A model generated the notes under the pieces. It was not told where the DNA came from, searched no databases, and saw nothing but the letters and a program-made list of their open reading frames with translations. From an uncultured Acidobacteriota bacterium (GTDB lineage: Bacteria; Acidobacteriota; JAQAZP01), in contig CAWIIB010000004.1 of NCBI GenBank assembly GCA_963836075.1, forward strand, positions 1 through 49,958: a stretch of DNA of 49,958 bases. Reading direction: 5' to 3'. The translations under genes and the position numbers were made by a program. This document shows positions 12,281 through 37,431 of the stretch, piece after piece (the stretch's first letter is position 1; each line of letters begins with the position of its first letter).

Positions 12281-14178
12281 ATGGGCTCTGATCGGTATGA
12301 CGTGGTGGTGGTGGGCGGCGGTCACGCCGGGTGCGAGGCGGCGCTGGCCGCCGGCCGCATGGGCGCCCGCACCCTGCTGCTCAGCATGAGCCGGGACAAG
12401 CTGGCCGCCATGCCCTGCAACCCGTCGGTGGGCGGGCTGGCCAAGGGGCACCTGGTGCGCGAGATCGACGCCCTGGGCGGCGTGATGGCCCGGCTGGCCG
12501 ACCAGGCCGGAATCCATTTCCGGACCCTGAACAGCAGCAAGGGGCCGGCGGTTCAGGCCACCCGGGCCCAGGAGGACAAGGCGCTCTACTGCCCGCCTGA
12601 TGCTGGAACAGCTGGAGAACCGGGCCGGCGTTGAGATCTGCTGGAAGGCGAGGCGGTGGAGATCGAGGCGCGGGACGGGCGGGTCGAGGCGGTGCTCACC
12701 GCCGACGGCCGGCGTTTCGCCGCCGCGCGCCGTGGTGCTGGCCGCGGGCACCTTTCTCGGCGGTCTGATCCACATGGGGCACCGGACCTTCCCCGCCGGC
12801 CGGGATGGCGAGCCGCCGGCCGCCGCGCTTTCCGCGTCTCTTCGCGTCGGCTGGGCTTTCGTCTCGGCCGCCTGAAAACCGGAACGCCGCCGCGGCTGGA
12901 CGCCGCCACCATCGATTTCAGCGCCTTTACGAGCAGCCCGGCGAGGACGATGCCGTGCCCTTCTCCTTTGAAACCGCGCGCACCGGGCCGAACAGCATCA
13001 CCTGCCACATGGGGTTCACCGGGCCGCGACTGAAAGCGATCGTCGAGAAGAACCTCGACCGTCGGCGCTCTACGGCGGGGCGATCACCGGCATCGGCCCC
13101 CGCTACTGCCCCTCCATCGAGGACAAGGTGGTCCGCTTCTCGCACAAGGAGCAGCACCAGCTGGTGCTCGAGCCCGAGGGGCCGGAGAGCCGGAGCATCT
13201 ATCTCAACGGCCTTTCCAACTCCATGCCCGAGGCGATCCAGCTGGAGATGGTCCGCGCCATTCCCGGCCTGGAGCGGGCCGAATTGCTCCGGCCGGGCTA
13301 TGCCATCGAGTACGACTTTGTCCCTCCGGAGCAGCTTCGGCCCTCGCTGGAAACCCGCGCGGTGCGCGGGCTCTACCATGCCGGACAGGTCAACGGCACC
13401 TCGGGATACGAGGAGGCGGCGGCCCAGGGACTGATCGCCGGGATCAATGCGGTTCTCGGTCTCGCGGAGAAGGGCGAGCCGCTGGTGCTGGGCCGTGCCG
13501 AGGCCTATGCCGGCGTGCTGGTGGATGACCTGGTGACCCTGGGCACGGCGCGAGCCGTACCGCATGTTCACCTCCCGGGCCGAGCACCGGCTGCTGCTGG
13601 GCATCGACACCGCCGAAGCAGCGGCTGCTGCGCCACGGGGCACGGCTGGGTCTGGTGCCCGGGACGCGCCTGCGGCGGTTCGAGGAGAGCGAGGAGCGGG
13701 TGGATGCGGCCCGCCGCGCCGCCTGCGTTCGCTGGTGGTGAAGCCGGACAGCGAGCTGGCCGGCAGAGGTGTCCGCGGCCTTCGGGTTCCGGCTCTCCCG
13801 GCCGGCCAGCCTGGAGGAGATGCTCCGCCGTCCCGGGGCCTGCCTGGACGGCGAGGCTGTCGCCGCTGGAGATCGAACCGCTGGCCGGCCTCAATCGCCA
13901 GGAGCGGCGGCGTCTCTACTACGCCATCAAGTACGAGGGCTACATCGAGCGGGAGACCCGGGAAGCCGGGAAAGCGGCGGAGATGGAGGGAGCGGCGGCT
14001 GCCCGAGGAGCTCGACTATCGCTCGGTGCCCAGTCTCAAGCGCGAGGCGGCGGAGAAGCTGGACCGGCTGCGGCCCGAAACCTTCGGCCTGGCCAGCCGG
14101 ATCCCGGGGTCACCCCGGCGGACCTGGTGGCCGATCCGGGTCCACCTGAAGCAGAAAAGGCCGGGGCGAGCAGAATGA
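12281..14178 (+). CDS. mnmG: tRNA uridine 5-carboxymethylaminomethyl modification enzyme MnmG/GidA (frameshifted)
   Basis: [78 protein letters not shown]. Confidence 0.97.
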
Positions 14179-14851
14179 CCGCGGTAACAATCAGGACCGC
14201 CGCTTTCTTCCCCTGGTGGAGGAGGGACTGGACGCTGGCCGGTGTCTCCGACCGGGAAGGGCTGGCCGGCCGGCTGGCCGGCTACTGCGCCATGGTGCGG
14301 CGGTTCCGCCGCGCCGCCGGCCTCACCGCCGAGCGTGACGACCGGTTGATGACGCTGAAAATGGCCATCGAACCGCTGCTGGCCCTCCGCTTCCTGTCCG
14401 CTACCCCACGGACCCTGCTGGATGTGGGTTCCGGCGCCGGTTCGCCGGGAATCGCCCTGGCCGCGGCGAACCCGGTCCTGGACGTGACCATGCTCGAGCC
14501 GGACCGGCGAAAGAGCGTTTTCATCGGTGAGGCGATCCGCACCCTCGAACTGCCCAATGCCGCGGATCGAGCGCATGCGCCTGGAGGAACTGCTTGCGAA
14601 CTCCGGAAACAGCGGAGTCCTGGCCGATTGTGGTCTCCCGCGCGGCGATGAAGCCGGCCAAAATGACCGAAGTGGTGGGCAAATCCATGCCCGGGACCAC
14701 CCGGCTGATCCTCTTTCTCAGTGTCGACGGCGTCAAGGAGGCCGGGTCCGGGCCCTGGTTCCGAGCTGATCGATCAGGTGTCCCTCCCCTGGCGTCCCTC
14801 CAGCCGCGTGGCCCTCTTCGAACGGATCTGATGGTACAATCAGTCGAATAG
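14175..14851 (+). CDS. rsmG: 16S rRNA m7G527 methyltransferase RsmG/GidB (frameshifted; 3' end uncertain)
   Basis: [19 protein letters not shown] motif, [14 protein letters not shown]; directly follows mnmG. Confidence 0.85.
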
Positions 14852-14856
14852 CGGAA

Positions 14857-15107
14857 CGTTGGCGGGGATGGTCTTCATCTGAACGACCTGTCGGTCGACG
14901 TGCCGCCGTTGTGCGAACAAAACCGCGCGGGAAACCGCGGCCGGGTCAGGCAAGCTCCGGCCGCGAAACAGGTGATGATGGAAACCATCAAAATCCTTCG
15001 TGCCGGGCGAACAATCCGGAACGCGGAGGGATCCCGCCGGTTTTGGAGCTTACAACGGCGTGCACTCGCAGACCGGGAGTGAGGATGAAGGGCCGGCTTC
15101 GTCAACG
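14857..15107 (+). repeat. About 250-nt rod-like imperfect palindrome, copy 1 (candidate ncRNA or non-autonomous element)
   Basis: Nested stems CGTTGGCGGGG/CTTCGTCAACG, CTTCATC/GATGAAG, CGCCGTTGT/ACAACGGCG, AAAACCG/CGGTTTT, apical TGATGG-AAA-CCATCA; homologous to 22166-22420 on the minus strand. Confidence 0.8.
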
Positions 15108-15161
15108 GATAAAATCCCTTTTTCACCTGCTATTGATTGGATTTTCCAGATTTTTGCGAAC

Positions 15162-15177
15162 TGTTCCACGTGGAACA
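15162..15177. promoter_or_regulatory. parS: parS centromere-like site 1
   Basis: Perfect palindrome TGTTCCACGTGGAACA upstream of parAB. Confidence 0.95.
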
Positions 15178-15197
15178 ATGGGCAGTGATTTCTCAAA

Positions 15198-15213
15198 TGT
15201 TCCACGTGGAACA
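15198..15213. promoter_or_regulatory. parS: parS centromere-like site 2
   Basis: Second perfect TGTTCCACGTGGAACA, 36 bp from the first. Confidence 0.95.
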
Positions 15214-15328
15214 TCGAGGGCCCGGGGGTGGAATCTCTTCCATTTCAGTCGATCTCCGTGCTATTATTTTGACCTCTCTCCGTAGGAAGCTCTTTGTTGG
15301 CCACAATTCTTCACATTGTTGGGGATTA

Positions 15329-16111
15329 ATGGGTAAAATAATCGCCATAACCAACCAGAAGGGTGGGGTTGGGAAGACCACCACTGCCATAAACCTTGCC
15401 GCGTCCCTGGCCGCGGCCGAAAAACGGGTTTTGCTGGTGGACCTCGACCCCCAGGGCAATACCACCGGTGGCCTCGGCTTCAAAACCGGGGAGGAGAGCC
15501 GTCGACGTCACATCTACCACGTGCTTATTGAAGGTATGGAGGCCCGGGATGTGGTGCTGCCCACCGAATTGGGTCTTCTCGACCTGATCCCCTCGGGCCG
15601 TGACCTGGCCGGCGCGGAGCCGGAGCTGGTGAACATGGAGGGGCGGGAGTACCGGCTGCGCGAGGCGCTGACCGACCTGGCCGCGGACTACCAGTATGTC
15701 TTCATCGACTGCCCCCCGTCCCTGGGCCTGCTCACCGTCAACGCCCTGGCCGCGGCTCACAGCGTGCTGATTCCGATCCAGTGCGAGTACTTCGCCATGG
15801 AGGGGCTCACCGAGCTGACCCGCACGCTGACGCGGGCCCGGTCCTCTCTCAACACCAGCCTCGACATCGAAGGCATCCTGCTGACCATGCTCGACGAACG
15901 GACCCTGCTCACCCGACAGGTGACCAGCGAAATCCGCGAGTTTTTCGGCGACAAGGTCTTCAAAACGGTGATCCCCCGCAATGTCCGCCTGGGAGAGGCG
16001 CCCAGCTTCGGCAAGCCGATCCTGCTCTATGACATCCGTTCCAGGGGGGCGGAGGCCTACCTGGACCTGGCCAGGGAAGTGATTGAACATGAAGCGGAAA
16101 GCACTGGGTAG
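15329..16111 (+). CDS. parA: Chromosome partitioning ATPase ParA/Soj
   Basis: MGKIIAITNQKGGVGKTTT, VDLDPQGN, IDCPPSLGLLT, IPRNVRLGEAPSFGKP. Confidence 0.97.
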   Translation: MGKIIAITNQKGGVGKTTTAINLAASLAAAEKRVLLVDLDPQGNTTGGLGFKTGEESRRRHIYHVLIEGMEARDVVLPTELGLLDLIPSGRDLAGAEPELVNMEGREYRLREALTDLAADYQYVFIDCPPSLGLLTVNALAAAHSVLIPIQCEYFAMEGLTELTRTLTRARSSLNTSLDIEGILLTMLDERTLLTRQVTSEIREFFGDKVFKTVIPRNVRLGEAPSFGKPILLYDIRSRGAEAYLDLAREVIEHEAESTG

Positions 16112-16953
16112 GGGGCTCAACGCCCTGATCCCCGACGCCCCCCGGACCACCGAAGCCGGCGGGCAATGAGATCCAGATGGTCAAGGTGGATGCCATCCGG
16201 CCCGGCCGGTTCCAGCCCCGCCGCAAGATCGATCGCCGGAAGATCTCCCTGCTGGCCGTCTCGATCCGTAACGACGGCATCATCAATCCCCTGCTGGTCC
16301 GTCGTGTGGACGGCGGCCTGGAGCTGGTGGCCGGTGAGCGGCGCCTTGAGGCGGCCAGGGAGGCCGGACTGAAGCAGGTGCCGGTGATGATCCGGGACCT
16401 GACCGACGAGAAGGCAGCGGAGCTTGCCCTGGTGGAAAACATCCAGCGGGAGGAGCTGAACCCGGTGGAGGAGGCCGAGGCCTACCAGCAGCTGATCGGC
16501 CAGTTCGGGCTGAGCCAGGACGAGGTTTCCAAAAGGGTGGGCAAGGAGCGGGCAACGGTGGCCAACATGCTCCGGTTGCTCAAGCTGCCCGATGCGGTGA
16601 AGCAGCACATGCGCGACGGTGAGATCACCATGGGGCACGGGCGTGCCCTGCTGGCCGTGCCCGGGGAAAAGGAGCAGGTCGCGCTCTGCCGGCGGATCCT
16701 CGCCGACGGACTCTCGGTTCGTGCGGTGGAGGAGGCGGCCGCCCGCAGCGGTGCGCGCAAGAAGCCGGTCAAGAAAAAAGAGGCGGAGAAGCAGGACCCC
16801 AACGTGCGGGCGGCAGAAGAGGAGATGACCCAGAGCCTGCATGCCAAGGTGCGGATCAACGGCAGCCACCGGAAGGGGAGGATCGAGATTTACTACACCT
16901 CCGACGAGGAATTGGATAGAATTTACCAGCTTCTGACCAGAAAGCGGGGCTGA
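16089..16953 (+). CDS. parB: Chromosome partitioning protein ParB/Spo0J (one frameshift near the N-terminus)
   Basis: MKRKALGRGLNALIP, FQPRR, VAGERRLEAA, ENIQREELNPVEEA, HTH region GKERATVANMLRLL. Confidence 0.96.
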
Positions 16954-16973
16954 GTGATTGGTGGGTGAGGGCC

Positions 16974-17327
16974 ATGGCGAAAACGAAATCGACTGGCGAG
17001 ATCAACGCGTACCTGGACGGGGATACGATTCTCGACGGCGAGATCACCGTCAAGGGGTCGTTGCGTATCGACGGCAAGGTGAAGGGCAAGATCACTGCCG
17101 GCGGTGAGGTGGTGGTGGGGCCCACCGCCGAGGTGGATGCCGAGATTACCGCCACGCTGGTCTCGATCAGCGGTAAGGCGGCGGGGAGCATCAGGGTCAC
17201 CGACCGGGTGGAGATTTTCACCGGCGCCGTGGTGACCAGCTCTTTGATCACTCCCAGCCTGCAGATCGCTGATGGCGCGATTTTCCAGGGCCACTGCGAG
17301 ATGAACCCCGGCGGCAAGCTCGACTGA
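16974..17327 (+). CDS. Bactofilin (polymer-forming cytoskeletal protein)
   Basis: LDGEITVKGSLRIDGKVKGKI ... LQIADGAIFQGHCEM beta-helix pattern. Confidence 0.9.
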   Translation: MAKTKSTGEINAYLDGDTILDGEITVKGSLRIDGKVKGKITAGGEVVVGPTAEVDAEITATLVSISGKAAGSIRVTDRVEIFTGAVVTSSLITPSLQIADGAIFQGHCEMNPGGKLD

Positions 17328-17350
17328 ACGGTGCGGCGAGGAGACGATTG

Positions 17351-18409
17351 ATGAGCGATGAACCAAAAAACGAAGAGGTCCGCCTGACCAGGTCGGTGAC
17401 CAGCGGCGGGTGAGCGGCCAAGATTGCTCCAGGGGTCCTGGAGCGTGTTCTGGGCAGCCTGCCGCGGGTCGACGACTCGAGGGTCCTGGCCGGATTCGAC
17501 ACCAGCGAAGATTGCGGTATCTATCTCCTGCGAGACGATCTGGCCATGGTGCAGACCATCGACATCCTCACCCCTGTTGTCGATAACCCCTTTGTTTTCG
17601 GGCAGATAGCGGCATCCAACGCACTCAGTGACGTCTTTGCCATGGGGGCCCGGCCACTCACCGCGCTCTCCTTTGTCGGCTTTCCACGCAGCGGCCTGGG
17701 GATGGAGGTGCTGGAGCAGATGCACCGCGGCGGACTGGACAAGCTCACGGAAGCCGGCACCGTCCTGGTGGGCGGCCACACCATCGCCGACAAGGAGATC
17801 AAGTTCGGCTACGCGATCACCGGCGAGGTCCACCCCGGCGGCATTCTGCGCAACGCCGGCGCCCGGCCGGGCGACGCCCTGGTGCTGACCAAGCCGCTGG
17901 GCATCGGGGTGCTGACCCACGGCGTGAAACAGGACAAGACCTCGGCGCAGGAGCTGGCCGCCGCCATAGCCCAGATGACCACGCTGAACATGAGTGCCTC
18001 CAGGCGTGCCCGTGAATTCGGCGCCAGCGCAGTGACCGACGTCACCGGCTTCGGCCTGGTGGTGCACGCCCTGGAAATGGCCAGGGGCAGCGGTGTCGAC
18101 CTGGAACTCGACTCGGCCGCGGTGCCGCTGTTGCCCGGTGCGCTGCGGGTGGTGTCCGAAGGCTGCATGCCCGGGGCGGTGAAGACCAACCGCGAGTTTG
18201 CCGGGGAGAGCGTCAGCTACGCCGACAGCGTGGATGAGAACCTGCAGTGCCTGCTCAACGACCCGCAGACCGCCGGCGGCCTGTTGATCGCCGTTGATGC
18301 CATCAGCGCCAAACGGCTGGCGCGGTTTCTCACCCAGGATGGTGGAACCGCCGCGGTGGTGGGTCGCGTGGTCAACGCCGGGAAGTGCCCCTCCATCAGT
18401 GTTCGGTAG
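17351..18409 (+). CDS. selD: Selenide, water dikinase SelD, selenocysteine-containing (TGA at 17411-17413)
   Basis: RLTRSVTSGG-TGA-AAKIAPG in frame with VQTIDILTPVVDNPFVFGQIAASNALSDVFAMG, GGHT, LTKPLG, TDVTGFGL, DPQTAGGLL. Confidence 0.95.
17426..17444 (+). promoter_or_regulatory. Bacterial SECIS hairpin
   Basis: GCTCCAGG-GGT-CCTGGAGC perfect 8-bp stem with G-containing loop, 12 nt after the in-frame TGA. Confidence 0.8.
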
Positions 18410-18484
18410 CAGGCCCTCGGTCCGGCCCATGCCGCCCCGGTCACCAGAAGCGCACCTTCGGCTGAAACAGTGACGGATCGAACC

Positions 18485-20298
18485 ATGACTCAATCAGGCC
18501 CCGACTCCGGACGAGGTGCATTGCTCCGGCGCACGCTCCTTCTGGCGCTCTGGGCCGGGCTGATTCTGGGCGGTCTCGACGTGGCCCGGATCCTCACCCG
18601 CGGCGACCTGGTCCCCACCCATATCCACTACCTGGTCCTGGCCCTGAACATGGTTCAGGCACTGGTCGCGGGGCTGCTGCTCTTTCTGCTCCTGGGGTAT
18701 CTGCCCCGTCGCGGACTTGTCCGTTTCGCGGCGGAGCTGGTGCAGCTCCCCTTCCCGGCCCCCGGGCCGAGACGGCGGGTGCGGTCCTGGTCCTGCTGCT
18801 GGCGGGGCTCACCGGGCCGCTGGCCGGGATGGCCGAGGAGAGGCGTCTGGCCGAAGAGTTTCCCGCGGCAGCGGAAGAGCCGGCAGCCGCCAGGGCACTT
18901 CCCGCCAGCACGCTCCCAACGTGATCGTCCTGGTGATGGACACCGTGCGTGCCGATCACCTCTCGCTCTACGGCTACCAGCGGCCCACCTCGCCGAACCT
19001 CGAGCGTCTGGCTCCGGAGTTTCTGGTCTGCCGCAACGCCATCAGCTCGGCGCCCTGGACCGTCCCCTCCCACGCCACGCCTGTTCACCGGCCTCTACCC
19101 TTACAACCACGGGGCGCGGAGCTTTCTGCCGCAGAACATCAGCAGGGGGAGCTGGAGCAATGTTTTCACGCTCGACCCGAAGTGGACCACTCTTGCCGGC
19201 CTGCTCGGCCGGCAGGGCTACCTCACCGCCGGGCTGGTCTCCAACCCCTACCTCTCGCCCCACTCGGGCCTGAACCAGGGGTTTGACCAGCTACCAGTTC
19301 CAGACCAACCGCAACTACCTCCTGCCCCTGCGCTGCCAGTGGTTGATGAAGAAATGGTTCGGAGACCGCTGGCGGGCCAATTTCGACAAACCGCAACAGT
19401 CGGCGTGGCAACTGAACCGGCGGATCGAGCGCTGGCTCGATGTACACGGGGATCGTCCCTTCTTTCTCTTTGCCAACTACATGGACGCCCACCTGCCGCA
19501 CAATGCGCCGCCCCCGTTCTGCGACCGCCTTTCCGGGACAGCTTCCCGGCTTTCGGGTTCAACCGCCCCTTCGAAGCGACGATCATGGGCCGGGAGCGGC
19601 CGGTGAAGGAGGCGGAGGTCGCACACCTTCATGCCATGTATGACGGGTCGATCCAGCTATCTCGACCACCACCTGGGCCGATTGCTGGACGGGCTCCGCC
19701 GCCGCGGGCTCTACGAGAACAGCCTGATCGTGCTGCTCAGCGACCACGGCGAATATTTCGGTGAGCACGCTCTGCTGGAGCACAGCAAGGACGTCTACGA
19801 GCCGGCCATGGCCGTGCCGCTGATGGTCCGGTTTCCGGGCGGCGAGCCCGCGGGGCGAGGTCACCGTCCGGACCCACCTGGTGGACGTGATGCCCACCAT
19901 CCTTTCCGTGCTGGGCATCGAGGTCCCGGCCCGGGCCCGTGGAATGGACCTGCGGCAGGTGACCGAAGGGCGGATGCTGCTCGGTGAGAACTATTTTGCC
20001 CGGGTCAAGGATCTCCGGCGGCCGTACGGCCACCGCTTTCGCCGGGTGCGGCAGGCGGTATACCAGGGCCAGTGGAAATACATCCACTCCACTGACGGGA
20101 ACAGCGAACTCTACGACCTGGAATCGGACCCGCGGGAGTTCACCAACCTGATCGTCGACCGGCCCGACGTGGCGGAATCCCTCCGCCTGTGGCTGGAGGA
20201 ACAGCTCTCCGCAGAGCCCGGCAACCGATGATGACTCGCAACCCCTGGAGGTGGACGAGGAGACCCGCGCCAGGCTCGAGGCCCTCGGGTATATCTGA
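18485..20298 (+). CDS. Membrane-anchored sulfatase-like hydrolase (frameshifted)
   Basis: N-terminal TM segments; PNVIVLVMDTVRADHLSLYGY, APWTVPSHA-LFTGLYP, NYMDAHLP, SDHGEYFGEH, ELYDLESDPRE, C-terminal LEALGYI. Confidence 0.88.
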
Positions 20299-20328
20299 CT
20301 GTCCCGCCCTCGATCGCAAATTTTCACA

Positions 20329-20357
20329 TTGACAACTAATTTTACAGACATTAGGGT
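20329..20357 (+). promoter_or_regulatory. Sigma70-type promoter
   Basis: TTGACA-N17-TAGGGT in an AT-rich intergenic region. Confidence 0.5.
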
Positions 20358-20461
20358 TTACCCAAGCCTTTCCTGGTTCACTACAACAGAAAATCAGTTC
20401 ATGCCCCCGCCCAATCCGTCCGGCGGTTGGTAACCACTGACCATTTGAAGGGAGATGCACC

Positions 20462-22146
20462 ATGTGGAACACCAGGTTCGGATTGGCCGTGGCCGCCATC
20501 CTCCTGCTGATTCTGGTTTTGCTCACCGCCTCGCGGTGAGGGGCCGCCGGCCGATGACGAAGGCATCACAGCTGAAAGGCTCGGCGGCTCGGCGCCGGGC
20601 GAGTCTCCCGGAAAAGGAGACCGGGCCGGCCCTCGAGGGAACGCTCATGGCGGCGTCCATTGCCGCGGGCAGCGGCGGGTCGGTCATGTCCGACATCGGG
20701 GTCGAGCCGGCTGGCGATGAGCGCGGACGGCGGGTCGGTGGCCATTGTCAGCTCGTCAACAACCTGGTGGAAGGGCAGCACGACGCCCTTCGCGACTCGC
20801 ACCTGCCCGAGCTGTTTCTCCATGACCGGGAGGCCCGGGGCATCACGCCTGGTCTCGCACAGCGTCGGCGACCCGACCCAGACCGCCATCGCCCAGTCGG
20901 ACTACCCCGACGTCTCCGCCGACGGCCGCTACGTGGCCTACCAGAGCAGCTCCACCGACCTGGTGGCCTCGGACGGGACGCGGAGCATGTTCCACAACCA
21001 GGTCTTTCTCTACGACCGGGAGACCGGCGCCAACGTGAGGATGAGCAACGCCGCCGGCGGCATCGCCCCGTCCAACGGGGCCTCCGAAGGCGTGTCGATC
21101 AGCGCCGACGGCCGCTGGGTGGCCTACCAGTCCAACGCCCAGAACCTGATGGCCGGCCAGCAGGACCGGCGGGGCAACGACGACATCTTTCTCTATGACC
21201 GGGAGAGCGGCGAGAACATCAAGGTCAGCCATGCCCCGGGCAGCGAGACCGCGCCGGCGGACCACCAGTCCATCGCCCCGTCGATCAGCGCCGACGGCCG
21301 GTGGGTGGCCTACGTCAGCTATGCCACCAACCTGGTGGACGGGCTGGACGACCCGAACGGCAACGGCATCGACATCTTCCTCTACGACCGGGAGAGCGGC
21401 GAGAACATGCTGGTCAGCCGGGCCGGTCATTCCCCCACCACCACCGGCAACAACGGCTGCAGCCCCGAGCCGCCCATCGATCAGCGACGACGGCCGCTTC
21501 GTGGTTTACAACAGCACCGCCGTGGATCTCGTGCCGGGAATGGTGGACGAGGCGGGGGACGGCATGGTCTATCTCTTCGACCGCCAGAGCGGGCGAGAAC
21601 CGTCTGGTGAGCCACGCCGCCGGGAAGCCGCTGCGCACCGGCATGTATCTCGCCGAGGCGGCCTCGGTGAGCGGCGACGGGAACTGGGTGGTCTTTGCCA
21701 GCGAGGCCAGCGACCTGGTGGCCGGCCAGGACGATTCGGAGGTCCGGCGCAACATCTATCTCTGGGAGCGGGCCACCGGCACCACCCGGCCTGGTCAGCC
21801 ACCGGGCCGGCTCGACCGTCGCCTCGCCGAACCAGAACTCCTACGAATCGGCGATCAGCCGTGACGGCCGCTTCATCGCCTTCGACTCCGACGCCCCGCA
21901 CCTGGTGCAGGGGCAGGTGGACGAGGAGATGGGGCTCGACCTATTCCTCTACGACCGGGAGACCGCGGCCATCACCCTGGTCAGCCACCTCGCAGGCAGC
22001 CGACCACGGCCAACAACGGCTGCGCCCACCGACATCTCGATCAGCGCCGACGGGCGGGTGGTCGGCTTCATCAGCTGAGGAGGACGGCCTGGTGCCCGAG
22101 GACACCAACGGTGCAGACCGACGCCTTCTGGTTCGAGGTGGAGTAA
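20462..22146 (+). CDS. Exported TolB-like/PD40 beta-propeller repeat protein (frameshifted)
   Basis: Signal-like N-terminus; repeats of about 60 aa, SISADGRWVAY.S.A.NL..G..D..G..DIFLYDRESGEN..VS. Confidence 0.8.
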
Positions 22147-22165
22147 GAAAACGAAGGGATCCGGA

Positions 22166-22420
22166 GAGGTCGAACAGAGGACGGGACGATCATTCGGCTT
22201 CGCTCCGGGTCTCCGAGTGCACGCCGTTGTATGTTCGAAAACCGACGGGGCCCTCCGTGTTCCGGACCAGTCCGCCCCGATCGATTGTGATGGTGACATC
22301 ACTACATTGACCTGGCCGTGAATTCCGCCCCGGCCACGGAAACCCGTTCGGTTTTCTTCACACAACGGCGGCACGTCTCCGACAGTCGCTCAGACGAAAG
22401 ATCGCCCCGCCCCCCGACTC
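22166..22420 (-). repeat. About 250-nt rod-like imperfect palindrome, copy 2
   Basis: Reverse complement carries GACGTGCCGCCGTTGTG, AAAACCG, apical GTGATG-TCAC-CATCAC, TCCGGAAC, CGGTTTT and TACAACGGCGTGCACTCG in the same order as copy 1. Confidence 0.8.
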
Positions 22421-22552: not shown

Positions 22553-23340
22553 ATGAGCAGTTCTATCGAAGGTTTGCCCGAAACGTCCGTCGCCCATCCG
22601 GAGCATCACGACCTGGAGTTTGCCAGAAGGATCCGGCAGGACCTGCTGCCCGGGATCACTGGTGGGCACCGAGACCTTCCGGCTGGACGTCCATCACCAT
22701 CCCCACGACCTGATCGGCAGCGACTTCTACGACATGATCCCGCTGGACGGGCAACCGCTTCGGCATCCTGGTGGCCGACGTGCGGGGCACGGCGTCTCGG
22801 CGGCGCTCTACACCATGCTGCTGAAGGGGCTGGAGGAAAAGTATGCCGTGCAGAAGCAGCGATCCCGCCGCATTTGTTGCCGGGCTGAACCAGGGAACTG
22901 GCCCGCTATTCCGTGGACGACAGCGTCGCCACCGCGGTCTATGCCGTTCTCGACGCGGACGCGGGACCCTGTGCTATTGCAGCGCCGGGCACCCGCCCCT
23001 GCTGGTCTATCCGGGCGTGCGGCCGGCAAGGTGAGCTGCCCTGGCCGTCCGGCGGCCTGCCCCTGGGCTGTTTCGATGATGAACAATTCACGGCGCGGGA
23101 GACGACGCTGGCTCCGGCAGACCTGGTGCTCTTCTACACCGACGGCCTCACCGAAACCAGCGAAGACCGGCCGACCCGATAGTCGGTGAGAAGGGGCTGG
23201 CCGACCTGCTGCGCCAGGAGGTCATCGACCCCTCCATGGATCTGCCCAAAAGGCTCTACGACCGCGTGCTGGCCCTCTCGGGCGAAAATTCCCTGGACGA
23301 CGACGCCCTGATTCTCTCCCTGCTTCGGCGTAACACCTGA
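22553..23340 (+). CDS. Stand-alone PP2C/SpoIIE (RsbU-like) phosphatase domain protein (frameshifted)
   Basis: ARRIRQDLLP, GSDFYD, VADV.GHGVSAAL, AGHPP, GLPLG, FYTDGLTE, DDD near the C-terminus. Confidence 0.85.
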
Positions 23341-23553: not shown

Positions 23554-25078
23554 ATGAACCCTCGCGCAATGCTTTCGGCTCTGATCATTGTTTTTGTCGC
23601 CTTCTTTACAGCCCAGTCGTCCAGGCCCAGACCACGATCCACGTGGACGACGATGCGCCGAACGATCCCGGGCCGGGTGACCCGGCGGTGAGCGACCCGC
23701 TGGAGGATGGATCCACCGCCCATCCCTACGATGCCATACAGGAGGGGATCAACGCCGCGGTGAACGGCGACACGGTGCTGGTGGCCGACGGCACTTACAC
23801 CGGCATGGGCAATTGGGACATGATTTCCTCGGCAAGGCGATCACCGTGGCTTCGGCCACGGGCCGGCTGCCTGCATCATCGACGGCGAGGGGAGCTGGGA
23901 CAACGAGCACTTCGCGTTCATGTTCGACAGCGGGGAGGGAAACGACTCCATCCTCCGCGGATTCACCATCACCCACTTCACAGCTATCGGTGCCGCCGCC
24001 GGCATCAACTGCGGGACGTCGCCCACCATCATCGGCAACGTGATCAGCGACAACGAGGGGTTCGACGGCGGCGGGGCGATGACGATCTGCCGGGGAGAGT
24101 TCACCCTGATCATCGGCAATGTATTCACCGAGAACATTGCTGAATACAGCGGCGGGATCATCATCTATGGCCACGCCCAACCGCTGATCTTCAACAACCT
24201 GCTCTACGGCAACTAGGCTATCGACACCGGCATAGGGCGACACCGGCGCCATCTACTGCTTTGCCGGCAACTACAACTCGTGCCGGCCGCTGATCATCGG
24301 CTGCTCCATCGTCGACAACTATGGCACCGGGTATGCCTCGGGTATTTACGGCAACGACTTTGCCGAGATCACGGTTCGTGACTCGATTATCCGGGGTAAC
24401 TGCAACGGCCAGATCTACGCCTCATCTGCTCGATGACCTGGTCCTGCGTGGAAGGCGGGTTCCCCGGCGCCGGCAACATCGACCTCGACCCGCTTTTTGT
24501 CAGCGGTCCGGATGGCGACTACTATCTTTCCCAGATCGCCGCGGGGCAGGCCGTGGACAGCCCCTGCGTCGATGCGGGCAGTGACCTGGCGGCGGGACAT
24601 CTGCGCGTCACCGCCAACCGGTGTCGTCTGTTTGGATGACGTGGCCACGCGCAGCGATGGCTTCGGTGACACCGGACAGGCCGACATGGGTTACCACTAC
24701 ACGGCAGGTTCCTCCGTGGCGGCCACATTCGGCTGTGTGCCGTCCAGCGGCACACTCCCCTTCCAGAGCACCATGTTTGTTGAGCTGGAGAACCGCTACC
24801 CGGGGACCACCCGGCGGATCGCGGGGAAGATAAACGTCATGCTGGCCGGCGGCCAGGGGTATTCGAACTGGCGCGCCGGCTTCACCAACGTGGGTCCCGG
24901 CGACAGCTATCTCACTTCCTGGGTCCAGAACATCCCGGCCCTCGGCTCTCTGGAGGGCGGCAACCTCTTCACCCTGGTGGCCGAGGACGTCACCCCGCCC
25001 CCCTGGAACCAGCCGCCCTATCCCCCGGCAGGGGATACGGCCGCCAGCGTCTGCACGGTCACCGGGGTGACGCGGTAG
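23554..25078 (+). CDS. Exported right-handed beta-helix (pectin lyase-like) protein with shared C-terminal domain, paralog 1 (frameshifts, one internal stop at about 24214)
   Basis: Signal peptide; VDDDAPNDPGPGDP..SDPLEDGS.AHPYDAIQEGINAA..GDTVLVADGTYTG; SPTIIGNVISDN repeats; GNIDLDPLF; shared CTD. Confidence 0.8.
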
Positions 25079-25153
25079 GGAAGGTAAACACATCTCTTGA
25101 GTTCTTGTTAGGGATCAGTTGAGGGATCATCAGGCAGCAGAAAAGGACGGGAA

Positions 25154-26999
25154 ATGAAAACGCGCACATACTTTTCGGCATTGTTCGTCGTACTCGCATT
25201 GCTGCTCTTTGCCCCGTCCCTCCAGGCCCAGACCACCTGGTACGTGGACGACGACGCGCCGGGAGACCCCGGCCCGGGTGACCCGCTGATCAGCGATCCG
25301 CTGGAGGACGGCACGGCCGCCCACCCCTTCGACGCCATCCAGGAGGGGATCTATGCCGCGGCGCCCGGCGACACGGTGCTGGTGGCCGATGGCACGTACA
25401 CCGGTATCGGCAACCGGGAAATTCGGTACCAGGGGAAGGCGATCACGGTGCGGTCGGAGAACGGGCCGGAGAACTGCACGGTGGATTGCGGGGCGGTTGT
25501 AACCGAAACCCGCGGCGGGTTCTATTTCTATTCCGGGGAGGGGCCCGGCGCGGTGCTCGAAGGAATGACCATCACCGGGTCGAGTTTCAATGCCTCCCAC
25601 CCTGAACTCTTCGGCAACGGGATATATATCAACAACAGCTCACCAACCATCACCGGCAATGTGATCACCCACAGCCACAACGATGACGGGATCTATCGCG
25701 GGGGGGAAGCGATCCGACGATTATCGGCAACACCATCGCGGACTGTGATGAATCGGGGATAGTCATCGGCAACGGCAACCCGGTAATCCGTGACAATATC
25801 ATCGTGCGAAACGGATCGACGTCCAGGGACGGGGAGGAATCCGTTTTACCGGTGCCAGTGCGGCGGGCCGGATCGAGGGCAACCGCATCGCCGACAACGA
25901 GGGCGAGTCGGGGGGCGGCATCTATCTGAATCAACTCCCCAACAACACCGTTACCCCGGTGATCGACAACAACGTCATCGCCGGGAACTACGCCCTGCAC
26001 AGTGGAGGCGGCATCTACATTTTCTATGCCAATCCCCTCTCGCTGACCAACAACCTTATTGCCGGCAACCTTGCCGGGTCCGGCGGCGGTCTGTTTCTGG
26101 TTGCAGATGATCTGTCCACACCGGGCGTTGAACCGGGACCGTTGAACTGCACGCTGGCCCACAATACCGCCTTCTATGAAGGCGGTGGATTGTATGTCCG
26201 TGCAAAGTTTGAAGAAACGGCGGCCATAACCCTGAAGAACACCATTCTGTCCGGTGGAGAGGCGGCCAGCGGCGGGAATTTCTTCCTCCGTGGGTCAGAA
26301 GCGACGGTAACCATCACACTCGACCACTGCCTGATCCAGGATGCCTCCCAAACGGTGCACATCGGCCAGCAAACGCTGATCCAGACCGGTCCCCTGCTCA
26401 CCGCCGATCCGCTCTTCGCCGACGGTCCGGGGGGCGACTACCACCTCAGTCAGACCGCGGCCGGCCAGCCGGCTGACAGCCCCGCCCTCGACGCAGGCAG
26501 CGACCCGGCGGCCACGATCTGTTTCGACGGGCTGGACGAGACCATCTGCCTGGGCGGCCTGTCCACCCGCAGTGATGGTGTGGCCGATGCCGGGATCGTG
26601 GATCTCGGCTTCCACTACCCGGCGGCGTCCACGTCCATCTTCGCCGCCCTGGGCTGCGTGCCGGCCAGCGGGACGCTGCCCTTCAAACGCCGATGACCGT
26701 CGAGCTTCACAACCTCCACGCCGACGCGCACCCGGCGGATCGCGGGGAAGATAAACGTCATGCTGGCCGGCGGCCAGGGGTATTCGAACTGGCGCGCCGG
26801 CTTCACCAACGTGGGGCCCGGCGACAGCTATCTCACCTCCTGGGTCCAGAACATCCCGGCGCTCGGCTCTTTGGAGGGCGAGAACCTGTTCACCCTGGTG
26901 GCCGAGGATGTCACACCGCCGCCGTACAACCTGCCGCCCTATCCGCCGGCCGGGGATACGGATAATGCTTCCTGCCTCATCACCGGCGTGGCGCGGTAG
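25154..26999 (+). CDS. Exported beta-helix protein with shared C-terminal domain, paralog 2 (frameshifted)
   Basis: MKTRTYFSALFVVLALLLFAPSLQA signal; same N-terminal block; GGGIY/GGGLF beta-helix turns; shared CTD. Confidence 0.82.
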
Positions 27000-27077
27000 G
27001 GAAGGTAAACACCTCTCTTGAGATTCTTGTTGAGGGATCAGTTGAGGGATCATCAGACAGCAGAAAAGGATGGCACA

Positions 27078-28572
27078 ATGAAAACGCGCACACACTTGAC
27101 GGCGTTGTTCGTCGTACTTTTGCTGCTGCTCTTTGCCCCGTCCCTCCAGGCCCAGAGCACCATCCACGTGGACGACAACGCACCGGGGGATCCCGGGCCT
27201 GGCGACACCGCCGTGAGCGACCCGCTGGAGGATGGCACCATAGCCCACCCCTTTGACGCCATCCAGGAGGGGATCAACGCCGCGGTTTACGGCGACACGG
27301 TTCTGGTGGCCGATGGCCTCTACACCGGTGAAGGAAACCGGGACATGAATTTCAATGGCAAGAGGATTACCGTGGGGTCGGAGAACGGGCCGGGCGAGTG
27401 CGTTATCGACGGGGAAGGGAGCTGGAACGAACTGCACACGGCGTTCCTGTTCGACAGCGGCGAAGGCCCGTATTCGATCCTGCGGGGGTTCACTATCACC
27501 CGGTTCGAGAGCTATGGGACAGCTGGTATCGATTGCCAGGCAGCATCACCCACGATCATCGGCAACGTGATAACTGTACATCAATGGAGGCGGGATCAAC
27601 GTGAATGGATCACCGCGGATCATCGACAACGAAATCACCCACAACTGGTCTAATTATGTTTACGCTGCCGCCATCCAAATCTGGGACGATTCGGCGCCGC
27701 TGATCTTCAACAATCTGATTGATGACAACAGAACCGATGAACAGTATGGCGCGGCCATCTCCTGCTACGGTGACTGCAGCCCGCTGATCGTCGCGTGCAC
27801 CATCGTCGATAATTACAATACCGGATATGCAAGCGGCATTTACGGAAGCGACCAGTCGGAGATTACGGTTCTCGACTCGATCGTCTGGGGCAACTACAAC
27901 GGAGAGATCTATGCCAACAACATCTCGGTGACGTACTCGGACGTCGAGGGCGGCTTCGCAGGCACCGGCAATATCGACCTCGATCCGCGTTTCGTCGGAG
28001 GGCCGGGCGGCAGCTATAGCCTCTCCCAGCTGGCCGCCGGTCAGGGGGTGGACAGCCCCTGCCTCGATGCCGGCAGCGACCTTGCTTCAAACATCTGCAC
28101 CCCAGGCCCGGATGGCGCAATCTGTCTCGGCGGCCTTTCCACTCGCACCGATCGTTTCTGTGACACCGGCCAAGCGGACATGGGCTTCCACTCACCGGCT
28201 GGCGCCACCGTGGCGGCCGCGTTCAGCTGCGTGCCGGCCAGCGGCACACTCCCCTTTCAGAGCACCATGTTCGTCGAGCTGGAGAACCGCTACCCTGGCG
28301 CCACCCGGCAGATCGCGGGGAAGATAAACGTCATGCTGGCCGGCGGCCAGGGATATTCGAACTGGCGCGCCGGCTTCACCAACGTGGGGCCCGGCGACAG
28401 CTATCTCACCTCCTGGGTCCAGAACATCCCGGCCCTTGGTTCACTGATTGGCGAGAACCGTTTCACCCTGCACGCCGAGGATGTCACCCCTTCCCCTTAC
28501 AACCTGCCGCCGTATCCCCCGGCAGGGGATACGGATGCGGTGTCCTGCACCATTACCGGGGTGGCGCCGTGA
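27078..28572 (+). CDS. Exported beta-helix protein with shared C-terminal domain, paralog 3 (frameshifted)
   Basis: MKTRTHLTALFVVLLLLLFAPSLQA signal; same N-terminal block; YSDVEGGFAGTGNIDLDPRF; shared CTD. Confidence 0.82.
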
Positions 28573-28604
28573 TGCTATTTCCTGATGCAGCCAAAGGAGC
28601 ATTC

Positions 28605-31153
28605 ATGAGTATCCAAATCGCCCGCTCTTTCCGTCTCGCCATGCTGATCCTCTGTTATTGCATTCCCGCGACGGCAGCAGAGCAGATGTTCGACGCCAGG
28701 GTCGACTGCTGGGCCGGGGACGGTGCCTGCTGGGTCGCCACCGGCGACCTGGACGGCAACGGCACACCGGACCTGGCCGTGGCGAATTTCAACAGCGACG
28801 ATGTTTCCGTGCTCCTGGGCCTGGGACGGCACCTTCCAGGTCGCCGTTGAGTTCGGCGTCGGTGACGGGCCGACGTCGGTGGCCATCGGCGACCTGGATG
28901 GCGACGGCAACCAGGATCTGGTTGTAACGAACTATTGGCAGAACACCGTATCGCTGCTTCCGGGAAGCGGTGACGGTTCTTTCGGTTCCGTTCAGAACCA
29001 CCAGGCCGGTGGCGGTCCATCCGCGGTGACCATCGGAGACCTGGACGGTGATGGCCAGCCGGACCTGGCCGATCTGCGCAAACCATGACGGGACATGGTT
29101 TCCGTGCTGTTGGGGAACGGGGACGGCACCTTCCAGGCGGCGGTGCTGTTCGGGGTCGGGGAGCGGTCCACGATCGATCGCCGCTGGTGATCTGGACGGT
29201 GACGGTATCCCGGACCTGGTCACGGCGAATCATGACAGCAACGATGTCTCGGTGCTGCTGGGCAGCGGTGGCGGGACGTTCCAGTCGGTGGTCATTCAAT
29301 ACCCGGCCGGCAGCAGCCCCATCACGTCGCCCTGAACGACCTGAATGGTGACAACGTCCAGGACCTGGCGACGGTCAACTTGGACTGGGATGATGTCTCC
29401 GTCCTGCTGGGCAATGGTGACGGCAGCCTCCAACCGGCGTTGAGCTTCATCGCCGGTGACGAGCCGCATGCCGTTGTCCTCGATGACCTGGACGGGGATG
29501 GCCATTCGACCTCACCGTGGCCAATGCCGGGAATGATGACATCTCGGTGCTGTGGGCAATGGTGACGGCACCTTCCAGCCGGCGGTGGACTACAATGTCG
29601 GTGTCGCCCCCAATTCCGTCGCCATCGACGATCTGGACGGTGACGAGGTCCCCGACCTGGCCGTGGCAAATTCGGAAGGCCGACGGGTCGCGTGTCGGTG
29701 CTTCCGGGCAAGGGCGACGGGTACTTCCCGGATGCCGCCTACTATGAGGCCGCTTATGGTGCGGGTTCCGTTAACATCGGCGACCTGGACAATGACGGCA
29801 GATTGGATCTGGCCATCGCGAATCTTACCACCGGATCGGTCTCGATCCTGCTGGATACGGCAACGGTTCATTCGAGACCGTTGGAAGCTATGAGATCGGC
29901 CTTACCGCCAAAGCCGCCGCCATCGGCGATCTGAATAGTGACGGCATCCCTGACCTCGTGGCATCAGAGCGGCTATCCGGCACCATGTGGCGATACTCAT
30001 GGGAAACGGTGACGGTACCTTCCAGCAAGCGGTGGAATACGCCACAGGCGAATTTCCTGGTCTGTTGCCACCCGGCGACCTGGATAGTGACGGCAACCAG
30101 GACCCCGCTCGTGGCAAACAAGGATGATTCCCATATCTCAATCTTCCTCGGTTTCGGTAAGACGGCACGTTCCAACCCGAAGTAACAACGTATGCTTACA
30201 ATCCCTGGTCGGTGAGGATCGGCGACTGAACGGTGAGACGGGATCCTGGATCTGGCGGGAACTAGCTCGATCCCGGGCACTCTGTTCGTGCGTTTGGGGA
30301 ACGGTGACGGCACCTTTCAAAGCGCCGAAAATTATGGGTTCAGTGACTATCTCTACACCCTCGCCATCGGCGACCGAAAAACGGCGAATGGAATTCCGGA
30401 TATGGCCGTGCGCCGCATTGATGCTCACCGGCTGTGATCCGGTCTGTAACACGGCCGGGTCTGGCTGATGATGGGCAACGGTGAGGTACCTTCGTGAACG
30501 CTGGAAAGTTATCGCGGGCCTGGCAGCCATTTACGGTGGCCATCGGTGATCTGGATGACGACGGCCATCGGAGCTGGCCGTGTCGAACCTCTCCAGCCAC
30601 AACGTTCGGTGCTGCGGGGCGCCGGGAACGGTGCGTTCACTTCGGCCGTGAGCTTCGGGGTTGGTCCGAGGCCACAGACAGTGGCCATCGGCGACCTGGA
30701 CGACAACGGCGCCCTTGACCTGGCGGTTGCGAATGATTCGCAGCAGTAATGTCGCCATCCTGCTCAACACCCGGGGATCCACGGGCAGGACAATCTATGC
30801 CGACCTGACCTGCTCTCCGCTGAAAGCACCCTGCCGTTCTCATCCCTCTTCCGGGCGGCCCTGATCAACGACGATGAAAACCAGACACGGCGGATCCAGT
30901 ACAGCATCCACGTAACCCTTGCCGGGGGCCAGTATTTTTCTTCCTGGCGTAGGGCTGGCTGAACATCCAGGCTGGCGAGATAGTTACCGAGCAGTGGGTT
31001 CAGTTTATCCCCGCCCTGTCGACCCTCGAGGGCGTGAACCACTTCCAGCTTGGTGCGGTCGACGTCACTCCGCCGCCATACAACCTGCCGCCCTATCCCC
31101 CGGCAGGGGATACGGATAATGCTTCCTGCACCATCACCGGGGTGGCGCCGTAA
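28605..31153 (+). CDS. Exported FG-GAP/VCBS repeat protein with shared C-terminal domain (heavily frameshifted)
   Basis: Signal peptide; many repeats of VAIGDLDGDG..DLAVAN..S.DVSVLLGNGDGTFQ; ends VDVTPPPYNLPPYPPAGDTDNASCTITGVAP. Confidence 0.8.
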
Positions 31154-31270
31154 TCCCCATTCCAACGACATTTTCCGGGCCCTTTTTCCGGGCCCGGGCC
31201 CTGTTTTCCCCCCTGGGAAAGATCCCCTCCTCCAACCTGTTGAAAACACCCCCCGAATCCCCCGAATTCA

Positions 31271-31299
31271 TTGACTCGCTTATGGTTCTATGTTAGATT
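31271..31299 (+). promoter_or_regulatory. Sigma70-type promoter of the atp operon
   Basis: TTGACT-N17-TAGATT with an extended TG. Confidence 0.6.
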
Positions 31300-31478
31300 T
31301 TCGAGTCTTTTGCCGTCTTCGGCACGCCCGAGGTGTCGGTTGACGGGGACAAGTGATTTTTTTCACAACGACTTAGGTGATTCGAAGAGCACCTGCGGGG
31401 GGCTGTCGACACCCGGGGGGCTTTTATTTTTTTCTATTCACTTTTTTCGTATCGCAGTAAGCGAAGGGGGCCCCGGAG

Positions 31479-31928
31479 ATGGAAGACATCATTCTCGCGG
31501 TCAAGGAACAGTACCCCCAGGGCATCATCGTTGCGATCGCCATCCTCATCATGATCTGGCTCTTGAAGAAGAACCTCTTCGAGCCGCTGCTGGCCATTTC
31601 GGCCAAGCGGGCCAGTGACAAGGAGAGCCTGATGCACGAGGCAGGCTCCTCGTCCGGCGAGCTGGAACGCCTGGAGAACGAACGGAAGCAGGGTCTGCTG
31701 AACGTTCGCTCCGACGTGGTCAGGATGAAGGACGCCGCGCGATCGCAAGCCCAGGAGGAGGGCCGGGTGAAGCTTGAAGCCACCACCACCCGGCTGACCG
31801 GCATCAAGGAAGAAAAATCGAAGGAGCTCGAGCAGGAGATGGCCACGGCCCGCGAGTCGATGGCCCAGGAGATCCCGCTGATGGCCCGCCAGATCGCCGA
31901 GCAGGTGCTCGGGCGCCCGCTGGCCTGA
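31479..31928 (+). CDS. ATP synthase F0 subunit b'
   Basis: N-terminal TM, LKKNLFEPLL motif, charged helical tail ending IAEQVLGR; first gene of the atp cluster. Confidence 0.85.
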   Translation: MEDIILAVKEQYPQGIIVAIAILIMIWLLKKNLFEPLLAISAKRASDKESLMHEAGSSSGELERLENERKQGLLNVRSDVVRMKDAARSQAQEEGRVKLEATTTRLTGIKEEKSKELEQEMATARESMAQEIPLMARQIAEQVLGRPLA

Positions 31929-31966
31929 CCGAGACCGAGACAACAACCGAACCGGAGAAATCGCTG

Positions 31967-32569
31967 ATGAGACGAACTTCCTTGATACTCCTTGCGGCGG
32001 CCGTGGTGCTGCTGGTGCTGCTGGCCCCGGCGGCGGCCCTGGCCCAGGAGGCCGGGCACGGCGGCGACGCGGGGCCATGGCGAGCACCATGGGATCAACT
32101 GGGGCACCCTGTTCTGGAAAACGGTCAACTTCATTATCTTCTTTGGCGCGCTGGGCTATTTCCTGGCCAAGCCGATCGCCGCCTTCCTCCGCTCCCGCTC
32201 CGAAAACATCACCAAAGAGCTCGATGACGCCCGCGACGCGCGGGACCAGGCCCAGGCCGAACTGGCCGAGGCCCGGAGCAAGGTGGCGAACCTCGAGCAG
32301 GAGCTGGCCGAGATGCGGGCCAAGGGCGGACACGACGCCGAAGAGCTGGGCCGCAACATGGTGGCCCAGGCCCAGGCCGAGTGCCAGCGGATCGAACGGC
32401 AGGCGGCCAAGGACCTCGACCAGATGGGCAAGAGTGCCCGGCGCCAGCTGCGCGAATACGCTGCCGAGCTCTCCATCGAGACGGCGGAGAAGCTGGTGCG
32501 TGAAGCGATCAACGACGAGGACCGCGGCCGGATTCTCACCGCCAGCCTCGAGCGGGTAGGAGGCGAAAA

Positions 32570-32573
<4 letters not shown>
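31967..32573 (+). CDS. atpF: ATP synthase F0 subunit b (frameshifted)
   Basis: WKTVNFIIFFGALGYFLAKPIAAFLRSRSENI followed by a coiled coil. Confidence 0.9.
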
Positions 32574-34640
<2,067 letters not shown>

Positions 34641-34642
34641 CC

Positions 34643-37387
<2,745 letters not shown>

Positions 37388-37431
37388 CCCTGCAGTGTTC
37401 ATATCCAGACCCCGTCTGGAAGGCAATAAGA

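Follow-up and report, generated by a model that had tools for sequence, protein, structure and literature searches.

The question raised by this locus is whether two long, rod-shaped elements in the genome of an uncultured Acidobacteriota bacterium belong to a family of structured RNAs or to a family of mobile repeats. The elements lie on contig C4 (CAWIIB010000004.1) of the bin G000 (6.2 Mb, 10 contigs), and the window analysed here is the whole of that contig, 49,958 nucleotides. An initial annotation had described them as diverged copies whose structure is under selection, and had left two readings side by side: a multicopy small RNA (sRNA), 6S-like and longer, or a non-autonomous element mobilised through single-stranded DNA (ssDNA) or RNA. 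Our analysis leads us to lean, tentatively, towards a family of lineage-restricted, independently transcribed, protein-binding structured sRNAs, for which we infer transcription, action in trans, protein binding and processing of the ends. The sRNA and mobile-repeat readings are not mutually exclusive.

Two homologous rods on one contig

The two elements, copy 1 (14857-15107, + strand) and copy 2 (22166-22420, - strand), are homologous as annotated, with a mean column identity of 79% over 330 aligned columns that include flanks, and BLAST aligned them at 75% identity across 209 nt. Their description as non-coding also stands. The sole open reading frames across them (14900-15082 + and 21949-22374 -) share their first ~15 residues and then run in different frames, which rules out a coding role, and copies also differ by indels whose lengths are not multiples of three. 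Each copy was predicted to fold into one long rod, at -140.7 kcal/mol for copy 1 (z -8.05) and -143.6 kcal/mol for copy 2 (z -7.82), and in neither case was any of 200 shuffled sequences as good. The reverse complements folded less stably, at -113.3 kcal/mol (z -5.25) for copy 1 and at -107.7 kcal/mol (z -3.37; one of 200 shuffles as good) for copy 2.

The stems quoted as invariant, GTGC-CGCCGTTGT/ACAACGGCG-T-GCAC and AAAACCG/CGGTTTT, were found in the sequence, and all of the compensatory swaps between the copies were recovered: GCGGG/CCCGC versus ACGGG/CCCGT and CCGCG/CGCGG versus CCGTG/CACGG in the core, TGATGG-AAA-CCATCA versus GTGATG-TCAC-CATCAC at the apex, and CTTCATC/GATGAAG versus GCGATC/GATCGT in the closing stems. 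Regarding the flanks, the extended -10-like TGGTACAAT does stand before copy 1. The tail described as ATCCCTT plus a T-rich run follows both window copies; it was not seen after the 11 other copies examined and is therefore not a feature of the family.

From the outside inwards, the rod consists of a closing stem (P1), an irregular helix (J1), the helix P2, a small loop, the helix P3, the block NCGGG/CCCGN, an asymmetric loop, CCGYG/CRCGG, an AA bulge, CCGG/CCGG and the apex. P1 measures about 20-25 bp and pairs in every copy, with a different sequence in each. J1 is conserved in sequence, with 5' CUGAACGACCUGUCGGAGAC opposite UCGCAGACCGGGAGUGAAGA, and its consensus pairing contains two 2x2 GA/GA loops two base pairs apart. 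P2 is GUGCCGCCGUUGU/ACAACGGCG(U)GCAC, with a bulged U, and P3, inward of the small loop, is AAAACCG/CGGUUUU. The asymmetric loop reads AAA/AGGGAU in A-type copies and UUU/AGGGY in U-type copies, asymmetric loops being retained in all copies, and several GGA-containing loops lie in the 3' half of the rod. A K-turn reading of the AAA/AGGGAU loop was discarded because the G-A signature that marks this motif is lost in U-type copies.

The rods come in two sizes. The short form, of about 175 nt, ends in the apical loop CCGCAG, and the long form, of about 250 nt, carries instead an apical domain of 70-80 nt with a CCAG/CUGG helix that short forms lack. A close match to the apical hairpin UGAUGG-nAA-CCAUCA is found in five of the seven long copies (copy 1 and loci L005, L008, L010 and L012); the exceptions are copy 2, with GUGAUG-UCAC-CAUCAC, and L006, with a different sequence. 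The parts of the two window copies are as follows; R1 is the covariance model described in the next section.

14857-15107, + strand: copy 1, whole rod, long form, A-type core, with the fold energy given above
14857-14880, + strand: copy 1 closing stem P1, 5' arm, paired with 15084-15107 in the fold
15084-15107, + strand: copy 1 closing stem P1, 3' arm, from the fold
14888-15078, + strand: copy 1 conserved core (J1, P2, P3, CGGG/CCCG, CCGCG/CGCGG); R1 121 bits, E 1.9e-26
14976-14990, + strand: copy 1 apical hairpin UGAUGG-AAA-CCAUCA, within an apical domain of ~80 nt at about 14942-15021
14832-14840, + strand: extended -10-like TGGTACAAT, 16 nt upstream of copy 1, a putative promoter that is not conserved in other copies
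15107-15124, + strand: small hairpin GGAU-AAA-AUCC, then C and UUUUU, a weak terminator-like tail of copy 1 (sequence and flank fold)
22166-22420, - strand: copy 2, whole rod, long form, U-type core, with the fold energy given above
22204-22385, - strand: copy 2 conserved core; R1 108 bits, E 4e-23

A family seen in one genus

We searched for further copies with R1, a covariance model of the short-form core (126 positions) built from five short-form cores only; its narrowness (effective sequence number 0.57) means that more distant relatives could escape it. In G000 it matched three copies, at 145, 121 and 108 bits, which are a third, shorter copy at C8:31931-32056 (-), copy 1 and copy 2, respectively. 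On the opposite strand the only match was one of 24 bits at the C8 copy. All genomes searched were metagenome bins, and the class was represented by three genomes of one genus, all three of which were matched by R1. In an even sample of the phylum, R1 matched three of 151 genomes, all of this genus, and did not find the rod in the other 148. BLAST of 61 related genomes gave matches only in G000 and two congeners, besides a 22-nt exact match in genome G022, which R1 did not match.

Larger collections were scanned with a 26-nt degenerate pattern, the metagenome scan being limited to one strict pattern. Among species-representative genomes 19 loci were hit, of which nine are true copies and ten, which lack the conserved blocks on either side, were taken for chance matches. 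The 22 loci on metagenome contigs comprise five full copies on one assembly, the truncated L053, two weak matches to the pattern only and 14 loci without a match to the alignment profile A2. Both loci found on viral contigs were chance by eye, and BLAST against 72,556 plasmid and 50,697 phage records returned nothing. The family as we see it has about 13 intact and three to five decayed copies, and we detected it in three genomes, all of a single genus, and in a few metagenome contigs, but nowhere else. Every genus genome retains at least one intact copy, with one to five intact copies per genome.

The statement that no known family could be assigned agrees with our searches. Rfam 15 gave no match at gathering score in the whole window, and at E<=10 the three element loci gave two matches, both off the elements: mir-2009, which falls on the parS-like pair described in the last section, and snoU82P. 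Nothing describing the element came up in full-text literature searches or in a term search of the preprint 10.64898/2026.10.21.760802, supplementary files being outside the scope of this search.

Covariation, strand preference and uneven constraint

Selection on structure, first proposed from two copies, is supported by compensatory changes across 12 copies, taken from the three genus genomes and one metagenome contig. In this alignment 94.0% of 755 pair cells hold standard pairs, compared with 35-43% when the partners were slid by 1-3 columns, and both sides have changed in 29 of 63 pairs, compared with 5-12 in the slid controls. None of 500 column shuffles reached any of five covariation measures, a shuffle-based count that is inflated by the small and related sample. 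RNAalifold reported compensatory change in 32 of 62 pairs, and even in helix 1 (the P1 and J1 pairs) 88.6% of pair cells are standard. In view of the slid controls, and of pairs for which three or four pair types occur, chance is unlikely to account for the pattern.

One strand is favoured, as had been suggested by the orientation of G-T pairs in the closing stems, and RNA folds, R1 scores and an excess of G-U all point to the same strand. In the seven long copies the RNA fold was 20-35 kcal/mol better than that of the reverse complement, and G-U occupies 36 cells of the 12-copy alignment versus 14 for A-C, ten of the latter being supplied by the two copies with the worst-aligned outer stems. 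With DNA energy parameters the asymmetry of copy 1 was nearly gone (-70.3 versus -62.6 kcal/mol, z -5.3 versus -5.0).

These values bear on the alternative that the rod works at the DNA level, as a single-stranded hairpin site of the sso or attC kind for priming or recombination. Both the strand bias and the conserved extrahelical bases would suit folded ssDNA, and the rsmG-parA spacer that holds copy 1, with the parS-like pair next to it, belongs to a region that is near the replication origin in many bacteria. However, DNA parameters fold the two strands almost equally where RNA parameters separate them strongly, the other copies are scattered among ordinary genes with no integrase or relaxase beside any of them, and the plasmid and phage records gave no match. 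We consider a DNA-level site very unlikely.

Constraint is unevenly spread along the rod. Across the 12 copies, core identity averages 83% (74-94%) and P1 identity 46% (20-68%). Cores at different loci in different genomes reach 91-94%, as for copy 1 with L005, L009s and L038s, whereas collinear coding DNA of congeners is about 84% identical, below the best core pairs, and intergenic flanks are mostly unalignable. A recent selfish burst would leave stem and core equally similar. The observed pattern differs and points to purifying selection, acting on the sequence of the core and on pairing alone in P1. Furthermore, the asymmetric loops have been kept, which argues against a simple arm-to-arm homogenisation of a palindrome.

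A candidate RNA family

In the reading that we tentatively prefer, each rod is probably an independent transcription unit, read from the strand that the initial annotation had assigned to it, and the RNA would fold as one irregular rod. P1, with its free sequence and obligatory pairing, could protect or define the ends, perhaps as a processing stalk of the RNase III type. The fixed loops of the core (the two GA/GA loops, the bulged U, the AA bulge and AAA/AGGGAU) may form a docking surface, most likely for a conserved protein, and the optional apical domain would add its conserved UGAUGG-nAA-CCAUCA hairpin. Paralogues would duplicate, shorten, invert and decay. A bolder version, in which the rods represent a new bacterial class of ribonucleoprotein RNA with a viroid-like layout, interchangeable paralogues and GA-rich loops that recruit a partner specific to this deep-branching lineage, and in which they would spread between spacers without terminal repeats or target duplications, is arguable but doubtful.

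If the rods are transcribed, they would constitute a structured RNA family that is new and whose covariation is unusually clean, given how few sequences there are. The combination of conserved core, free closing stem and optional module offers direct handles for experiment in a lineage with almost no genetics, where the family could point to an RNA-binding partner not yet known. Given the narrow reach (one genus) and an inferred function, its present weight is moderate.

The positions of the copies relative to genes are relevant to this reading. All copies lie in intergenic spacers, next to varied and unrelated housekeeping genes that include rsmG/parA, PD40, SpoIIE-domain, peptidase, sulfatase, AhpC, Omp85, biotin carboxylase, HtrA-like protease and rubrerythrin genes, and no neighbour gene was common to the copies at the loci examined. 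Among the eight copies that lie between same-strand genes, six are antisense to their neighbours (copy 2, the C8 copy, L005, L008, L016 and L038, the last judged from the rsmG side alone) and two are co-oriented with them (copy 1 and L012). Copy 2, for instance, is antisense to both of its + strand neighbours, the PD40 repeat gene at 20660-22146 and the SpoIIE-domain gene from ~22553. Read-through from neighbouring genes therefore cannot by itself account for the favoured strand, which, if it is made as RNA, needs a promoter of its own.

The same data address a purely local role, in which the rod would be a cis-acting spacer hairpin of the REP/BIME or SPRITE type, serving as a bidirectional terminator, a read-through barrier or a stabiliser of transcript ends with no function in trans. 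Such a role would fit the intergenic position of all copies, two of which (L009s and L010) sit between convergent genes, and the T-rich runs after copies 1 and 2; in addition, the high stability of a GC-rich rod would make it a block to exonucleases and potentially a stop for polymerases. It is harder to reconcile with the antisense orientation in six of eight cases, with L012, which sits directly after the upstream gene's own intrinsic terminator, and with the lack of a T-run in most copies. Moreover, a stem alone suffices for termination or stabilising, and a 125-nt core with fixed loops at 83-94% identity would not be needed. We regard a cis-acting hairpin as improbable.

Several observations weigh against the sRNA family that we prefer. 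No promoter is conserved: a convincing extended -10 was found at copy 1 only, where the two-hexamer promoter scan did not pick up TGGTACAAT, and 10 of 13 copies are preceded, at 11-66 nt, by weaker -10-like hexamers, compared with 7 of 13 in the opposite-strand control, with a mild rise in AT at -20 to -11. Terminator scans found no canonical terminator on the elements' strand, most copies being without one, and the hairpin at 15107-15124, whose stem has fewer than 5 pairs, was not scored. Among public sequencing runs, no RNA run was listed for window positions 14000-16000, and the 9 runs that were listed contain a share of its words no higher than 0.10. No partner protein was identified. The sample behind the covariation is small, its copies are closely related and the structure put to the test was itself obtained from them. 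Additionally, copies are missing at orthologous sites, and the truncated or deleted copies (L015, L017, L053 and remnants on contigs C1 and C9) imply that individual copies are dispensable. Lastly, the rsmG-parA spacer shows three subtypes and two orientations in three genomes:

C4 (window): long A-type copy, + strand
G001 (L008): long U-type copy, opposite strand
metagenome contig (L038): short form, opposite strand
C9: no copy

This mixed occupancy looks like mobility or gene conversion.

Site occupancy and the possibility of a mobile repeat

The main rival to an sRNA family is that the rods are selfish or semi-domesticated repeats of the ERIC/Correia/REPIN kind, copied by a trans-acting enzyme via ssDNA or RNA, or by recombination, with pairing kept because it forms a transposition intermediate or because the transcript must fold. 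The window is collinear with G000:C9 910439-863003 (in reverse orientation) at about 84% identity, rising to 95% over a 6.5-kb block (30995-37471), and C9 lacks both window copies, its rsmG-parA spacer measuring 210 bp versus 504 bp and its copy 2 site 608 bp versus 2310 bp. The spacers of G000 are also short where congeners carry a copy (84 versus 409 bp at L005, 25 versus 321 bp at L012 and 125 versus 1166 bp at L006), and the L045 site is occupied while both C9 and C4 are empty there. Filled and empty orthologous sites thus exist among relatives, as a mobile element would predict, and the three forms of the rsmG-parA spacer agree with this.

Regarding the relation between the two contigs, bin G000 holds the origin-proximal region mnmG-rsmG-parA-parB twice, with contig C5 likewise at one locus. 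C4 is probably a co-binned congener or a large duplication, and the contamination estimate of the bin is 4.6%.

In its core, copy 1 resembles L005, from a different locus, more closely (94%) than L008, which shares its locus (84%), and the short forms have a common deletion junction (GGCCGG-CCGCAG-GCCGG) at 5-6 different loci, which indicates that the short form spread after the deletion had arisen. Decaying copies also exist, namely L015 (inner deletion), L017 (3' inner deletion) and L053 (5' half only). Two of the "empty" loci of G000 hold remnants, a P1-only mini-hairpin at C1 about 2128000-2128200 and a degraded core at C9 about 679600-679750, and other genomes are intact at both; some absences are therefore losses of ancestral copies rather than sites never filled. 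Candidate enzymes are available in the form of Y1 (HUH) transposase genes (Y1_Tnp, 9 matches), which are present in all three genomes.

On mobilisation through ssDNA or RNA the evidence is divided: filled and empty sites and subtypes sharing a spacer speak for it, whereas conserved termini, target-site duplications and an adjoining enzyme were not found. The outermost 6 nt at either end are different in all 12 copies and no conserved terminal inverted repeats were detected, so that the termini are the least conserved part of the rod, the opposite of transposons that rely on such repeats. Flanking direct repeats were not above shuffles in any of the 12 copies, and a possible GATCG repeat at L012 was set aside because it belongs to the palindromic stem. 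The lack of near-identical copies inside any one genome argues against a recent burst, and a number of one to five intact copies per genome is low for a repeat of this kind.

The genes beside the copies include no transposase, no integrase and no reverse transcriptase. RVT_1 was matched in two of the three genomes, once in each, on other contigs and unlinked to the rods. At the six of nine Y1_Tnp loci that were examined, the best R1 score was 16.3 bits, where intact copies score 72-145 bits, and inverted repeats resembling the rod were absent. There is also no parent insertion sequence beside the copies, all matches being small elements, a result to be read with the fact that metagenome bins are often without insertion sequences. 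Furthermore, a core conserved above the level of coding DNA beside a scrambled stem argues for selection on function and not for recent common descent. Taking both sides together, we find a mobile repeat rather unlikely.

Known repeats help to place these features. REPINs are paired short REPs, about 100 nt in all, present in tens to hundreds of copies that flank or match their RAYT. The rods resemble REPs and REPINs as hairpin repeats that function as one strand, in genomes that all have Y1_Tnp genes; they differ in being 175-250 nt long and few, with none in the six Y1_Tnp loci examined. By analogy, the nearest counterpart in behaviour is the imperfect palindromes of the ERIC and Correia type. 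According to PMC3184786, these are 100-250 bp intergenic imperfect palindromes that occur in either orientation, with long and short variants that differ by an internal block, a predicted RNA fold and presence or absence at orthologous sites, which are all traits of the rods and give the mobile reading its precedent. The same source ascribes to ERIC-type elements terminal inverted repeats, target duplications and a flanking TA (PMC3184786). In contrast, the rod has its least conserved sequence at the ends, shows no duplication in 12 copies and has a far lower copy number, and its core is conserved above the coding-DNA level with extensive compensatory change.

The family is in this respect a test case for a puzzle posed by ERIC-like elements, namely whether long intergenic hairpins are conserved as functional RNAs or as mobile elements. 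The predictions differ, as an sRNA family should yield a discrete antisense transcript, and a mobile repeat new insertions in populations.

6S RNA and other known RNA families

The suggested likeness to 6S RNA was not supported, since neither the single folds nor the 12-copy consensus contains a large central bubble, the largest loops being about 4x4 nt. A strongly diverged 6S RNA, acting as a sponge for RNA polymerase and multiplied in the genus, would share with the rod a largely double-stranded form, a similar order of size and a variable closing stem, and 6S paralogues occur in some bacteria. It would also fit the result that the 6S model RF00013 matched none of the three genus genomes (in G000 not even at E<=10), though it matched 39 of 58 other sampled genomes of the phylum. 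However, the other 19 of these 58 genomes also lack a 6S match, yet the rod was in none of the 148 sampled, and a comparison by eye, with no alignment made, found no motif in common between the rod and four 6S sequences of the phylum.

Genomic position argues in the same direction. In all four loci examined, the 6S locus of the phylum is arranged pheT-zapA-6S-rny, a slot that the rod does not occupy. In the three genus genomes the zapA-rny spacer contains no rod; all three have there another structured stretch, 268-307 nt long, conserved between them and closed by a long-range helix, located in G000 as follows.

G000:C9 about 2643630-2643936, - strand (L089:2266-2572; also L087 and L088): structured stretch of the zapA-rny spacer, no Rfam 6S match

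This stretch is a candidate for a diverged 6S RNA, and a better one than the rod, or for an rny leader. The gene for 5-formyltetrahydrofolate cyclo-ligase, the classical neighbour of 6S, was not found in G000 (PF01812), the control being positive in 11 of 14 reference genomes. With no bubble, no model match and the wrong slot for the phylum, a 6S origin of the rods is hardly credible. Beside the stretch, a near-perfect 72-nt hairpin lies directly upstream of rny (L089:2191-2262; G000:C9 about 2643555-2643626) and has a counterpart in G002; its match to a microRNA model was equal on both strands and was dismissed as a palindrome artefact.

Other RNA classes were considered and rejected. SRP RNA is accounted for elsewhere, as RF00169 found one canonical SRP RNA in each of the three genomes. 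A bacterial Y RNA was discarded because TROVE/Ro60 (PF05731) was found in none of the three genomes, with positive controls in Deinococcus and Bacteroides. No reverse transcriptase adjoins any copy, as described above, which removes a retron or another RNA linked to such an enzyme. A guide RNA was rejected because searching G000 with the stem arms and apical domains of its three copies gave nothing better than E 0.02. Sibling sRNAs of the CsrB/RsmZ type, like Y RNAs, act by sequestering proteins. As with the rods, a genome contains several of them, at scattered loci, and a structured scaffold presents conserved loops; the GGA motifs of the rod, in contrast to those of CsrB/RsmZ, lie in internal and not in hairpin loops, and Rfam gave no match.

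Other features of the window and of neighbouring loci

Downstream of copy 1 the window encodes ParA (15137-16111) and ParB (16177-16953), together with a repeated palindrome.

15162-15177 and 15198-15213, no strand assigned: TGTTCCACGTGGAACA, an exact palindrome present twice between copy 1 and parA, with 0.01 expected by chance

We take this pair to resemble parS sites. The TGTTCCACGTGGAACA pair is also kept in C9, L008 and L038. At L045, a second and unrelated inverted repeat of ~100 nt (GTCATTGCGAGG...CGCTCGCAATGAC) lies at about 4400-4560 beside the short-form copy, and it is absent from both G000 versions of that spacer.

Several genes of the window have broken frames. The PD40 beta-propeller repeat gene (20660-22146, +) runs through at least four frames, a single open reading frame (13128-14651, +) fuses the C-terminus of MnmG to RsmG, and the SpoIIE-domain gene (22553-23189, +) is split between frames. 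These breaks reflect either pseudogenes or indel errors of the assembly, and small indels in single copies of the rod are therefore not to be over-read. Lastly, window positions 23620-28573 contain stretches that are 66-78% similar to their counterparts at C9 881417-888775 and to many places on C1, C8 and C9, which suggests a tandemly expanded gene family.

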